NCBI GenBank assembly: GCA_040757835.1
Contig: JBFLWJ010000003.1
Coordinates: forward strand, 146,960-210,959
DNA from: Actinomycetota bacterium
GTDB lineage: Bacteria > Actinomycetota > Geothermincolia > Geothermincolales > RBG-13-55-18
Length of the DNA: 64,000 nucleotides
Direction of reading: 5' to 3'
Shown: piece after piece, positions 4,559-29,550 of the stretch
Numbering within the stretch: the stretch's first letter is position 1
How the letters are laid out: each line of letters begins with the position of its first letter
Translations under genes and position numbers: made by a program
The notes under the pieces: model-generated
What the model saw: only the letters and a program-made list of their open reading frames with translations
What the model was told of the DNA's origin: nothing
Database searches by the model: none

Positions 4559-5422
4559 CTATCCTCCCCCCTCGGCCGCCAGTGGCGTCGTGCTCGGTGG
4601 CGGCGAGACCACCACCATCACCCGGTCAAGGCGGGTCAGGCTCGCCCTGGGATCGATGACGATGCCCACGGAGAGGTCGGCGCGGCGTTCGCTGATCTCG
4701 GTGATGGTCCCGATGGGTATGCCGGAGGGGCAGGTCCCCCCGAGGCCTGATGTGACCACCACGTCCCCCGTCTTTACGTCCGCATCCTGGTTGAGGAGCT
4801 CGAGCCGCACGCCTCCCCTCCCCTCGCCTTTCACCACGCCCATCTCCGCGTTGGCCTGGAGCATGGCGCCCACCGAGCTCTTGTCGTCGGTGATCAGTTG
4901 CACCACCGACGCCTCGGAAGTACAGAGGATTATGCGCCCCACCAGGCTGCCGTCCTCGCTCAGGACCGCCATGTATTCCTGCAGGCCGTCGGAGTAACCG
5001 GCGCCTATCTGGATGGTCTGCTCCCATATGTCCGGGTTGGCCCCGATGACGTCCACCACCAGGAACCCCAGGTCGGACCGGCTCTCCTTCACGGCGATCA
5101 TACTCTTGAGAGTCTCGTTCTCCAGCTTCAGTTCCTCGCCCTCGTCCACTTCCTTCTGCAGCTTCTCGACCTCTTCGGCCAGGCGGTTCCGCTCGCTGTT
5201 TGCGTCTCCCAGGTCGGCCAGGTAGCCAAAGCCGTCTTTGACCGGACTCAGGACCTTGCTCATGCCCTTCTGCAGGGGGGAGACGATGTCCAGGGAGAAA
5301 CGCTGCAGGCGGTGGAAGAGCCCGTCCTTGCTCTCCCGCGAATACACGGTGACCAGGAGCACGCAGATGATTATCAGGGTGATTATCAATACGCGCTGTC
5401 TGCGGTTCTGTCTTTCGACCAT
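4559..5422 (-). CDS. mreC: rod shape-determining protein MreC
   Basis: 287 aa with N-terminal TM, coiled coil (EKLQKEVDEGEELKLENETLK) and C-terminal beta domain; immediately downstream of mreB. Confidence 0.85.
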   Translation of the reverse strand: MVERQNRRQRVLIITLIIICVLLVTVYSRESKDGLFHRLQRFSLDIVSPLQKGMSKVLSPVKDGFGYLADLGDANSERNRLAEEVEKLQKEVDEGEELKLENETLKSMIAVKESRSDLGFLVVDVIGANPDIWEQTIQIGAGYSDGLQEYMAVLSEDGSLVGRIILCTSEASVVQLITDDKSSVGAMLQANAEMGVVKGEGRGGVRLELLNQDADVKTGDVVVTSGLGGTCPSGIPIGTITEISERRADLSVGIVIDPRASLTRLDRVMVVVSPPPSTTPLAAEGGG

Positions 5423-16431: not shown

Positions 16432-16519
16432 TGGTGCGAGAGGGGGGACTCGAACCCCCACGGTCATAAAACCACTGGGTCCTAAGCCCAGCGCGTCTAC
16501 CATTCCGCCACTCTCGCCC
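16432..16519 (-). tRNA. tRNA-Leu (anticodon TAG), long variable arm, encoded CCA
   Basis: rc = GGGCGAGAGTGGCGGAATGGTAGACGCGCTGGGCTTAGGACCCAGTGGTTTTATGACCGTGGGGGTTCGAGTCCCCCCTCTCGCACCA; cloverleaf with anticodon loop CU-UAG-GA. Confidence 0.9.
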
Positions 16520-16613
16520 GATTATCCGGGGTTCAAGAACGATAAATATACTACTACTTGCATAAAGACGAGGCAAACAGCCGCATCAGCGCCGCATCGG
16601 GTCACGACGGCCA

Positions 16614-16790
16614 GCATCGCGTAAGTAAGGTTTTCGCCTAGCGAAAGCCTCATTGCGGGAAGTGGAGCGACGTGGCAACCTCGATTGGGTCTTGCGCTGA
16701 AAAAATGGGGGGCTGGAGCGCGACGGCGCCAGTCGCCTGGACGATTCCGATCGTCCAGGCCTGGCACATATGCTCCGGGATGCAACGACC
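16614..16790. repeat. copy A of unrecognised structured intergenic element family ('S element'), long form
   Basis: ATCGCGTAAG...GGAGCGACGTGGCAACCTCGAT...GGAGCGCGACGGCGCC...CGCCTGGACGATTCCGATCGTCCAGGCCTGGCACATATGCTCCGGG. Between divergent tRNA-Leu and tRNA-Arg. Homologous to 36344-36500, 45592-45684 and inverted 7128-7235. Confidence 0.7.
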
Positions 16791-16808
16791 CATGCAACTG
16801 TTTTCAAG

Positions 16809-16817
16809 TGCTATAAT
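16809..16817 (+). promoter_or_regulatory. extended -10 promoter (TGcTATAAT) for tRNA-Arg/tRNA-His
   Basis: GTGCTATAATCTCCTTGCGGAACGTG; hexamer ends 15 nt before the tRNA-Arg mature 5' end. The same TGCTATAAT motif occurs upstream of tRNA-Pro. Confidence 0.55.
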
Positions 16818-16832
16818 CTCCTTGCGGAACGT

Positions 16833-16908
16833 GCGCCTGTAGCTCAAAGGATAGAGCAGCGGACTTCTAATCCGCAGGTTGGAGGTTCGAGTCCTCCCAG
16901 GCGTGCCA
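16833..16908 (+). tRNA. tRNA-Arg (anticodon TCT), encoded CCA
   Basis: GCGCCTGTAGCTCAAAGGATAGAGCAGCGGACTTCTAATCCGCAGGTTGGAGGTTCGAGTCCTCCCAGGCGTGCCA; anticodon loop CU-TCT-AA. Confidence 0.9.
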
Positions 16909-16918
16909 GAAAGAACGT

Positions 16919-16994
16919 GGTGGGCGTAGCTCAGCCGGAAGAGCACTGGGTTGTGGCCCCAGAGGTCGCGGGTTCAAGTCCCGTCGCTCACCCC
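16919..16994 (+). tRNA. tRNA-His (anticodon GTG) with encoded G-1 and CCA
   Basis: G-GTGGGCGTAGCTCAGCCGGAAGAGCACTGGGTTGTGGCCCCAGAGGTCGCGGGTTCAAGTCCCGTCGCTCACCCCA; the extra 5' G pairs with discriminator C73 (His identity element). Confidence 0.9.
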
Positions 16995-17004
16995 AGCATA
17001 AGGA

Positions 17005-19880: not shown

Positions 19881-19955
19881 CTCTTCCCTCCCGCTCCTCT
19901 CAGGCCGCCGGGCATTGATTTATTGAAGGCCGGGCCCATCCCGGCCTTTGTCCCT

Positions 19956-20032
19956 GGTCGGGGTGGGCGGATTTGAACCGCCGACCTCATGCTCCCAAAG
20001 CATGCGCGCTAACCAAGCTGCGCTACACCCCG
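19956..20032 (-). tRNA. tRNA-Pro (anticodon TGG), encoded CCA
   Basis: rc = CGGGGTGTAGCGCAGCTTGGTTAGCGCGCATGCTTTGGGAGCATGAGGTCGGCGGTTCAAATCCGCCCACCCCGACCA; anticodon loop UU-TGG-GA. Confidence 0.9.
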
Positions 20033-20094: not shown

Positions 20095-20170
20095 GCGGGA
20101 GTAGCTCAGATGGAAGAGCGAGAGCCTTCCAAGCTCTAGGTCGCGGGTTCGAGGCCCGTCTCCCGCTCCA
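20095..20170 (+). tRNA. tRNA-Gly (anticodon TCC), encoded CCA; insertion target of a genomic islet
   Basis: GCGGGAGTAGCTCAGATGGAAGAGCGAGAGCCTTCCAAGCTCTAGGTCGCGGGTTCGAGGCCCGTCTCCCGCTCCA; anticodon loop CU-TCC-AA. Confidence 0.9.
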
Positions 20171-20176
20171 TTTTTA

Positions 20177-20590
20177 CTATTTTCTTGTGCTAAAGGAGAC
20201 GTGGGCCTCAGGGCTTCCGTCTATTCTTATTTCCCAACGGTACCTCTTTCCAGGCTCCAGCTTGAGATTGGTGAAATTGAGGGCCTGTTTTACGCTGATT
20301 GGGGAGCCAGGTGGTACATTTGGGGGACGCCCAGCATTGAAATTTCCCTCTACTATTACTGGTGATGAAGGCTCCCCGACCATAACTTTTTCACCATCTT
20401 CAGTTTGCAGCTCGAGTTCAAATCGATGGTCTTGATTCGTCTCTGTCCATCCTACCTTTATATCAACGGCAAGCCCCATATGGTTGATGAGTGCATTACA
20501 TATGTCCCATCCTCCACCAAGGATAAAGAATTTACCTTCCACAACTTCAGCGGCATCACAAAGCATCACCATTATCTCCAATTCAATCAC
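20177..20590 (-). CDS. hypothetical protein, third gene of the islet operon (translationally coupled to antitoxin via ATGA)
   Basis: 137 aa; start overlaps the upstream stop (ATGA at 20587-20590). Beta-rich sequence with no recognisable motif. Confidence 0.5.
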   Translation of the reverse strand: MIELEIMVMLCDAAEVVEGKFFILGGGWDICNALINHMGLAVDIKVGWTETNQDHRFELELQTEDGEKVMVGEPSSPVIVEGNFNAGRPPNVPPGSPISVKQALNFTNLKLEPGKRYRWEIRIDGSPEAHVSFSTRK

Positions 20591-21056
20591 CTCCCCTCCG
20601 TCATGTTGGAGTTGATGCTTATATCCCTAAGCTCTCCTTCGGTACTATCGAAGTTGACTATGGGATCATATTCTGCAGCATTTCCGGAAAAAGCTATGCT
20701 TCTGGTCACAAAGAATCTATACGGCTGGCCATATAGATTCTTGCTAACCAAGTTCTTAAGATCATAGATGCTGCTTTCCTGCTCTTCTATTCTCCTGCAT
20801 AGAATCTCGGCTAGCTTGAACGTTGGTACCTTTTCACTTTTCTTCAATAGCCCCTCTCTTATCATTTCTCTTGCCAAGGTTGACGTTGGCATGTTCATTT
20901 CTCTCGCTTGGTCCACAAGCATCCTCAGCAATTCGGCATCTATTTTCATACTAAACACGGTGGATTTCTCCCTGGCTGGTGCAACCTCCAGCTCGATTCC
21001 TCCAACTTCATCCCAACCTTCTTCAAACATTGTCTCTTCGTCGTCTGCAAACTTCA
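20587..21056 (-). CDS. BrnA-like ribbon-helix-helix antitoxin with ~80-aa C-terminal extension
   Basis: MKFADDEETMFEEGWDEV... then RHH region STVFSMKIDAELLRMLVDQAREMNMPTSTLAREMIREGL. Its ATG overlaps the toxin stop (ATGA 21053-21056). ORF-track start at 21084 is an upstream in-frame TTG. Confidence 0.65.
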
Positions 21057-21319
21057 TTTCTTTACCTCCATTGCGGTGATACAAAACCAGGTACCCTCTT
21101 CCCTGCTATCTGGATTAATGAATATCTTTAGCCTTCTCCCTCCACGAGTCTTCCCAATCACTTTGAAGCGATATCCGTGCTTGTGGCTGAATTCTGGAAT
21201 TATCGTTCTTTCTTCATCCTCAAAAATGACCTGCTCAATCTCTTCGTAATCAATATGGTGTTTCCTCTATAACTTGTCGATAGTGTCAAAAGTCCAGCTC
21301 AACCGTTCTATTCTATAGT
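21053..21319 (-). pseudogene. BrnT-like (DUF497) ribonuclease toxin interrupted by an in-frame amber codon
   Basis: Minus strand: ATG(21319) MVLHYRIERLSWTFDTIDKL-TAG(21257-21259)-RKHHIDYEEIEQVIFEDEERTIIPEFSHKHGYRFKVIGKTRGGRRLKIFINPDSREEGTWFCITAMEVKK-TGA. Matches the BrnT pattern WD..K...N..KHG..FEE...VF.D......R....G......L.V......IRIIS. No start codon downstream of the TAG. Confidence 0.6.
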
Positions 21320-21581
21320 GTAGAACCATCGATTCTCCTATAGTAATACCATAAGTATTACTATTATAGACATGTCTCGGCGCTTCTGCAACTGCTCCAA
21401 GAAAGGAGAAGGAAGTGGGTGAGGCGAGGAAGTCCAATGATGATAGTGAGGTGAACGGGGTGGCTTAGAGATGTGCTATAGACCAGAAGATGTGGTACTC
21501 TCCGGCAAGCTCATGATTATTTACACATCAAATATTAGTGCTACGAAGATGGCCTCCCGCTCCATTTTCTTCTCTCGCTGC

Positions 21582-29205: not shown

Positions 29206-29550
29206 GGGGGCGAAACGGCTTCGACAGGGATCGGCGGACAGCGCGGGAGCGAGCCGGGGGCCCGAGCCTCGTCAGCAATCGGGAAAACAAAATAAACGCT
29301 GACAGCGAGTTAGCACTGGCTGCGTAAGCGGCCCGTCCCTCTCCGGGGGGCCCGCGACCGGGGAAGGGGCGTCATGCAGCGGGATCACCGAGGCCCCACT
29401 CCCGTTAAGGCCGAGGGACAGCTTTCCGGGATAGCCGACGGCAGGCCTTTCGCCGGGCGCGCCGGCGGTGAAAAATAAGCGGCGAATACGCTCGTAGAGC
29501 CCACCTGGCCGGGTTTCTGGACGGGGGTTCGACTCCCCCCGCCTCCACCA
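29206..29550 (+). ncRNA. ssrA: tmRNA (ssrA)
   Basis: 5' GGGGGCGAAACGGCTTCGACAGGG pairs with 3' ...GGACGGGGGTTCGACTCCCCCCGCCTCCACCA (tRNA-like domain, T-arm GGTTCGACTCC). Internal tag ORF ...GCT GAC AGC GAG TTA GCA CTG GCT GCG TAA (...ADSELALAA*). Confidence 0.9.

Follow-up and report, generated by a model that had tools for sequence, protein, structure and literature searches.

BrnT/BrnA, a type II toxin-antitoxin (TA) system of Brucella abortus, is a two-gene module in which a gene for a small toxin of about 90 amino acids (Pfam PF04365; solved toxins 3U97 and 7VD7) precedes and overlaps the gene for a ribbon-helix-helix (RHH) antitoxin of about 90-100 amino acids (PF12441). The toxin combines a RelE-like (BECR) fold and RNase activity with an N-terminal W-D...N..KHG motif, of the general form W...(K)KH(G/H), and in BrnA the RHH domain lies at the C-terminus (PMC11980606). 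A third gene follows the toxin and antitoxin in toxin-antitoxin-chaperone (TAC) modules such as HigB1-HigA1-SecB(TA) of Mycobacterium tuberculosis (PMC5105189, PMC6377645). It encodes the defining SecB-like chaperone, which is required for antitoxin function and binds a C-terminal extension that is missing from chaperone-independent homologues of the antitoxin. TA modules are also carried by tRNA-targeted islands and integrative elements, which they stabilize and which show insertion at a tRNA 3' end, a repeat that includes the tRNA end, and foreign composition. Finally, in orphan antitoxins or anti-addiction modules the toxin is inactivated and the neighbouring antitoxin, promoter and operator remain intact. 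Here, we describe a three-gene islet at a tRNA-Gly gene that has features of each of these systems. It lies in a 64,000-nucleotide stretch of an Actinomycetota genome (assembly GCA_040757835.1, contig JBFLWJ010000003.1, positions 146,960 to 210,959), hereafter the window, to which all coordinates refer unless a related locus is named. The islet is probably a tRNA-integrated element with a divergent BrnTA-like operon as its cargo. An amber mutation of a Trp codon would recently have killed the toxin, leaving an orphan RHH antitoxin together with a DUF6941 gene as passenger. Read in this way, the locus is an ordinary decay state and no new three-part system.

The three genes of the islet all lie on the minus strand; both the sequence and its list of open reading frames (ORFs) agree on this with a preliminary description of the locus. 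The first is a DUF497/BrnT-like toxin pseudogene of 91 codons (21054..21329) that begins with ATG at 21329-21327, 10 nt from the 21319 given in that description, and closes at TGA 21056-21054. Its frame is intact except for codon 21 (21267..21269, minus strand), an amber TAG in place of an invariant tryptophan codon; that 20 codons precede the stop had been counted correctly, although its coordinates had been given as 21257-21259. Intact toxins of the family are 90-91 amino acids long with 48 invariant positions, and an alignment of them places Trp21 among these in every intact homologue. The codon reads TGG in the related loci L003, L004, L007 and L008, and TGA in L001 and L002. Because L003, the closest relative, has TGG at this position, the TAG of the window is a one-step nonsense mutation of Trp21, a G-to-A transition, and the earlier view that the toxin is inactivated beside an intact antitoxin is upheld. 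With the stop codon left out, the ratio of nonsynonymous to synonymous divergence (dN/dS) between the window and L003 toxins is 0.19, at a dS of 0.20, and the deficit of nonsynonymous changes is significant against neutrality (binomial P=0.002). Purifying selection would therefore have acted on the toxin for the greater part of the period after the split from L003, which suggests that the knockout is recent in the window lineage.

Toxin loss is not confined to the window. In the L001 toxin gene (L001 5732-6004) the frame is interrupted twice, by TGA in place of the Trp21 codon and by TAG at codon 32, and both stops recur in L002 (963-1235). Since L002 was assembled separately, the inactivation of toxins in this family is real and has occurred more than once. 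The 113-amino-acid antitoxin beside the doubly interrupted L001/L002 toxin is intact. TGG codons supply most of the transition routes to stop codons, and the chance that one of the two L001 stops falls on the same codon as that of the window comes to 0.09-0.27, according to the transition bias chosen. Given this probability, the same-codon stops were rejected as a sign of recoding.

If the TAG had instead arisen as an error in sequencing or assembly, or if the consensus of a metagenome-assembled genome had picked up a minority allele here, the toxin-antitoxin pair would be intact and functional. Such an artefact is unlikely, though it is the best placed of the alternatives considered here. The window does derive from a metagenome-assembled genome, its TAG is a single base from the TGG of L003, and the remaining toxin frame is undisturbed and bears the mark of purifying selection. 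Substitution errors are, however, rare in consensus assemblies, and the nonsense inactivation in L001 is independent of that in the window and reproduced in a separate assembly. Moreover, TA systems commonly lose their toxin and keep the antitoxin.

The second gene (20587..21057, minus strand) encodes an intact RHH antitoxin of 156 amino acids, ending with a stop codon at 20589-20587. Its start codon (ATG 21057) and the stop codon of the toxin overlap as ATGA (21057-21054), as the preliminary description had it, and a toxin gene upstream of and overlapping the RHH antitoxin gene is also found in L003, L004 and L007. A Shine-Dalgarno sequence, GGAGG, stands 7 nt upstream of the ATG; the antitoxin thus has a ribosome binding site of its own and could be translated without coupling to the toxin. 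The antitoxins of the family give dN/dS values of 0.06-0.08 (0.08 for the window against L003). An alignment of five antitoxins shows a common acidic N-terminus, an RHH core with an invariant MPTSTLARE-IREGLL motif, and a helical stretch extending to about residue 108. In the window protein the predicted RHH domain comprises residues ~33-70 (20848-20961) and is followed by a long helix (residues 79-108) and then by a tail (residues 109-156; 20590-20733).

How closely this operon is related to BrnT/BrnA was assessed by profile comparison. The window toxin matches BrnT_toxin (PF04365) with E=1.4e-5 and 25.7 bits, under the 34.5-bit cut-off, and the same holds throughout the family: all 6 toxins match this profile and none reaches the cut-off (25.7-26.8 bits; best E=6.8e-6). 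One family toxin is labelled as a DUF497 protein by JGI. The window antitoxin matches CopG_antitoxin (PF12441) with E=0.068, and four of the five family antitoxins match it with E-values of 0.0046-0.068, all under the 28-bit cut-off. When the toxin alignment was compared with 7vd7_A by hhalign, W12 fell on the Trp of FEWD and KHH on KHG, in a weak match (P=0.004, probability 9%); with the solved BrnT-type toxin 3u97_A the comparison gave P=0.06. The module shares with BrnT/BrnA the gene order and overlap, the size and apparently the N-terminal motif of the toxin, the best Pfam matches of both proteins, and a palindromic operator at the promoter. It differs in lying under the Pfam gathering thresholds, in having no sequence match to 3U97 or 7VD7, in replacing KHG with KHH, and in its toxin being a nonsense pseudogene. 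Unlike BrnA, the antitoxin has a central RHH domain, followed by a helix of about 40 residues and a lineage-specific tail of 48. Taken together, the sub-threshold scores, the layout and the motif make the toxin BrnT-like in layout and motif rather than a demonstrated member of the Pfam family; the likeness to BrnT proposed earlier is real though below the cut-off, and the assignment of the operon to type II TA systems of BrnT/BrnA type is supported.

Upstream of the toxin, a promoter/operator region (21335..21368, minus strand) consists of TATAAT at 21368-21363, a candidate operator GTAATAC-N5-GTATTAC at 21361-21343, and the Shine-Dalgarno sequence AGGAG at 21339-21335; a repeat search detected a perfect 10-nt palindrome in the same region. 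This arrangement, TATAAT (TATGAT in L008), then GTAATAC-N5-GTA(A/T)TAC, then AGGAG, precedes every toxin for which enough upstream sequence is available, namely those of the window, L001, L004/L006 and L008, representing four lineages. The conserved element looks like a promoter with a predicted RHH operator. In the relatives it lies at approximately 5683-5731 of L001, 6955-7000 of L004 and 790-834 of L008. The two operator half-sites form an inverted repeat in the window and in L004, but a direct one in L001 and L008.

The preliminary description did not notice the setting of the module, an islet that adjoins a tRNA gene. A block of low GC content (0.38-0.52 at ~20171-21570, as against 0.61-0.75 in the flanks, by composition profile) begins right at the 3' end of tRNA-Gly(TCC) (20095..20170, plus strand; ARAGORN, with an Rfam tRNA score of 64.9 bits). 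The block is bounded by a perfect 15-bp direct repeat, CTCCCGCTCCATTTT, of which two copies occur in 64 kb where shuffled sequences predict none. The left, attL-like copy (20160..20174, plus strand) consists of the last 11 nt of tRNA-Gly and 4 further nucleotides, and the right, attR-like copy (21554..21568, plus strand) lies 14 nt from the stop codon of a host SRPBCC gene. Between them, the low-GC islet proper (20175..21553) contains the three genes; the unit measures 1,394 bp, or about 1.4 kb. The genes on either side are housekeeping genes, encoding SRPBCC, Ham1/RdgB, RNase PH, MurI and an SDR. Insertion at a tRNA 3' end and a flanking repeat that includes the tRNA end, the hallmarks of an integrative element, are thus both found here, and the low-GC block bears the signature of putative site-specific integration into the tRNA gene.

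The TA family to which this operon belongs is very rare. Among 5.8 billion proteins, the antitoxin query recovered only two clusters and a repaired toxin query three. With the window included, the family numbers six loci in five lineages, window and L003 being counted as one: window/L003, L001/L002, L007, L004-6 and L008. The antitoxin of L003 is 91% identical to that of the window. In the four other lineages the TA genes form two-gene modules with antitoxins of 109-113 amino acids and no third gene, the bicistronic layout being named for L001, L004-6 and L007. Several of these relatives also have tRNA neighbours: tRNA-Arg in L004 (7713-7788) and L005 (4280-4355) and tRNA-Lys in L008 (580-656), the genes facing mostly the tRNA 3' end, while in L001 a tRNA-Ser (4676-4769) lies about 1 kb from the TA genes. 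These positions suggest that the TA cassette repeatedly travels on tRNA-targeting elements, and a clear flanking repeat is present in the window only. A repeat search of the L004 islet returned none, and that of the L001 islet two short GC-rich families on one side only; a targeted k-mer search of L004 yielded one shared 9-mer (CCTGGAAGG), which is marginal. No additional antitoxin relatives were detected in metagenome or viral contigs, either by protein alignment or with a degenerate DNA pattern for MPTSTLARE.IREGLL, and a tblastn search of plasmids with the antitoxin gave no match. Searches of PHROGs, PADLOC and NCBIfam returned nothing informative.

The preliminary description had noted an unusual C-terminal extension of about 80 amino acids on the antitoxin. 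Some 85 residues do follow the RHH domain, compared with about 40 in the 109-113-amino-acid relatives, and the helical stretch of about 40 residues is shared family-wide; what is special to the window and L003 is the last ~48 residues (109-156, opening with YGQPYRFFVTRSIAF), which are absent from P0002, L007 and L004. Nothing related to this tail was found by nucleotide or protein comparison in the fetched loci, nor in the protein search of 5.8 billion proteins. For want of any such similarity in these loci, the possibilities that the tail had been a 3' untranslated region or part of a neighbour of DUF6941 were rejected. Comparison of the window with L003 shows 6 nonsynonymous and 7 synonymous changes in the tail (P=0.009 against neutrality), a pattern which suggests that the tail is translated and to some extent constrained. 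An AlphaFold2 (AF2) model of the antitoxin, built on an alignment of only 3 sequences, is of low confidence (pLDDT 42.7) and not usable for a fold search; as a hint to secondary structure it offers a strand-helix-helix over residues 35-67, a further helix over 79-108 and, within the tail, three short strands.

Within the antitoxin ORF, an imperfect 23-nt inverted repeat (20703..20750, minus strand) forms a strong hairpin at the very point at which the window and L003 sequences depart from the family consensus. Its predicted RNA folding energy is -27.2 kcal/mol (z=-6.2), and none of 200 shuffled sequences was as stable. The left arm, coding for LVSKNLYG, still belongs to the part of the gene with homology to the family, and the right arm codes for PYRFFVT, the first residues of the tail. 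The version of the hairpin in L003 is weaker (-14.7 kcal/mol). This structure may have been left behind by an inverted duplication; alternatively, it may itself function as an RNA or DNA element. The tail probably arose when the 3' end of the ancestral antitoxin gene underwent a local inverted duplication, which would have removed the stop codon.

The third gene (20177..20590, minus strand) encodes a protein of 137 amino acids when read from GTG 20590. The preliminary description had coupled it to the antitoxin by ATGA; the overlap is in fact GTGA, and the start itself is uncertain, with TTG 20581 or ATG 20566 likelier. The Met7 codon (20572) is ACG (Thr) in L003, where 34 nt separate the second and third genes and no overlap exists. 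At its other end the gene closes with a tandem stop, TAG TAA (20174-20179, minus strand), whose second codon takes in the final base of the 15-bp repeat; the gene thus extends to the very border of the element. The protein matches Pfam DUF6941 (PF22091) with E=1e-17 and 65.2 bits against a cut-off of 27, over profile positions 2-122 of 125, and it is identical to an NCBI entry from an Actinomycetota metagenome-assembled genome. An AF2 model based on a 75-sequence alignment (pLDDT 97) predicts a nine-strand, Ig-like beta-sandwich. The earlier characterization of this protein as beta-rich and, by eye, unlike SecB agrees with the model, and neither the profile, the model nor the fold searches gave any resemblance to SecB. 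A Foldseek search of the model against the PDB returned nothing below E=1e-3, and one against BFVD returned four matches below this value, all uncharacterized phage proteins of similar size with query-normalized TM-scores of 0.57-0.71. Among the closest structural matches is a protein of Anoxybacillus phage A403 (A0A2P1JU14; TM-scores 0.66/0.64). By this modelling, the DUF6941 fold may be shared with phage proteins.

DUF6941 proteins are numerous, with 1,166 representative clusters at E<=1e-3. We sampled 80 DUF6941 loci from reference genomes, mostly of Acidimicrobiales and other Actinomycetota, and searched within 4 kb of each with hidden Markov models of the toxin, the antitoxin core and the tail; none of the three had a match at any of the 80 loci. 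The neighbours that recur at these loci are unrelated housekeeping genes; judged by eye from example sequences, they would encode a methyltransferase, a MaoC-type dehydratase, an acyl-CoA dehydrogenase and MutY. The neighbour of the next-closest DUF6941 homologue, P0007, is likewise unrelated. A tRNA gene was found near DUF6941 at 1 of the 19 loci checked. From the absence of TA genes and the unrelated neighbours it follows that DUF6941 does not habitually accompany TA modules. No mention of DUF6941 was found in the literature that was searched. In the window this gene is most likely a passenger that stands outside the TA mechanism.

These results bear directly on the proposal, made in the preliminary description, that the locus has a TAC-like tripartite layout. 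In a form with a partner other than SecB, the 48-residue tail would be a chaperone-addiction-like element and DUF6941 a dedicated stabilizer or regulator of the antitoxin. Several features are in its favour. The gene order is that of TAC modules; the tail and DUF6941 are both present in the window and L003 and both missing from the four other lineages; and the tail is near the size of the chaperone-addiction domain of M. tuberculosis HigA1, about 45 amino acids (PMC5105189). It opens with an acid-free, aromatic and basic segment that matches the composition described for SecB-binding segments (PMC5105189), and, as noted above, it is apparently constrained. However, the window and L003 antitoxins are 91% identical, hence the co-occurrence of tail and third gene amounts to a single evolutionary event in one lineage. 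The third protein is an Ig-like beta-sandwich and not SecB-like, TA genes and tail-like sequences are missing from all of the sampled DUF6941 loci, the tail has no relatives anywhere, and an indel makes both the stop/start overlap with the third gene and the last residues of the tail differ between the window and L003. Of the proposed likeness, then, the absence of the extension from two-gene homologues is retained, and a recurrent association with a third gene is not; nor is the tripartite layout itself supported, given the four two-gene lineages and the loss of the overlap in L003. We consider a TAC-like module with a non-SecB partner somewhat less likely still than an artefactual TAG, and a little less likely again that the tail and DUF6941 were acquired together as a chaperone-addiction-like pair constituting a new class of tripartite TA control. 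Programmed leaky expression, in which low-frequency readthrough at codon 21 would keep the toxin dosage very low, would explain a stop at one Trp codon in two lineages (TAG in the window, TGA in L001/L002) with the downstream frame conserved (dN/dS of the interrupted toxin genes 0.11-0.19, with nonsynonymous changes spread about evenly over the L001 and L007 branches on manual polarization against the toxin alignment), but it is highly improbable in view of the chance expectation for such a coincidence, the role of TGG as the main transition route to stops, the second stop of L001 at codon 32, the four intact relatives that need no stop, and the lack of a suppressor tRNA in the window and of any known recoding signal by Rfam.

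Several observations also weigh against the interpretation that we favour, that of a tRNA-integrated BrnTA-like operon with a dead toxin and a passenger gene. The islet has no integrase or other mobility gene, its ORF list being limited to three small ORFs, and in this and in its length of only 1.4 kb it departs from described tRNA-targeted integrative elements; it is therefore either what a deletion has left of an element or a miniature form mobilized in trans. An empty integration site was not recovered, exact-protein look-ups of SRPBCC, RNase PH and P0006 having given no record, and the case for integration is made from the repeat, the tRNA gene and the composition. The profile of the toxin family finds no BrnT among PDB sequences, and all of the BrnT and CopG matches are under the curated Pfam thresholds. 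Finally, the constraint on the tail suggests something that a pure accident of rearrangement fails to predict, and the tail and DUF6941 co-occur perfectly, though within one lineage only.

On balance, the following history and mechanism appear the most probable. A remnant or miniature integrative element of about 1.4 kb would have entered at the 3' end of tRNA-Gly(TCC), duplicating 15 bp of the target, with a rare, divergent operon of DUF497/BrnT-like toxin and BrnA/CopG-like RHH antitoxin as its cargo and DUF6941 attached downstream. In its intact form, by analogy with BrnTA and with RHH antitoxins in general, one TATAAT promoter would drive the toxin and then the antitoxin; a dimer of the RHH antitoxin would bind the GTAATAC-N5-GTATTAC operator over the transcription start and repress the operon, and would also neutralize a small, presumably RNase-type toxin. 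The single G-to-A change of TGG to TAG at Trp21 would then have reduced the toxin product to a 20-residue peptide and left it dead. The antitoxin could still be translated from its own GGAGG and would now act as an orphan, autoregulating repressor. Such an antitoxin could in addition neutralize incoming homologous toxins, as in anti-addiction modules, whose arrangement of intact antitoxin, promoter and operator beside an inactivated toxin is that of the window; no incoming cognate element is known, and for the window this role is a conjecture.

The surroundings of the islet contain further RNA genes and structures. A tRNA-Pro(TGG) gene (19955-20032, minus strand) stands back to back with tRNA-Gly, the 5' ends of the two lying 62 nt apart on opposite strands, and is followed by a GC-rich hairpin (19921-19949) that is probably a terminator, its weak Rfam match (cHP, E=0.27) being meaningless. 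A tmRNA gene with the tag peptide ADSELALAA (29206-29550, about 8 kb off the islet) and a cluster of tRNA genes for Leu, Arg and His (16432-16995) are ordinary host features.

On the reading that we favour, this is a routine case of a horizontally acquired type II TA cassette, caught shortly after the knockout of its toxin. The islet would then be a small, clean example of how TA modules ride in at tRNA genes and of how a toxin dies by the easiest route, from TGG to a stop codon, and the antitoxin tail would be an example of gain through local inverted duplication. The analysis also documents a very rare BrnT-like lineage, with six loci in 5.8 billion proteins and a conserved GTAATAC-N5-GTAWTAC operator. 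If the tail and DUF6941 were to interact after all, they would constitute a non-SecB analogue of chaperone addiction, and this would be the first function for DUF6941.

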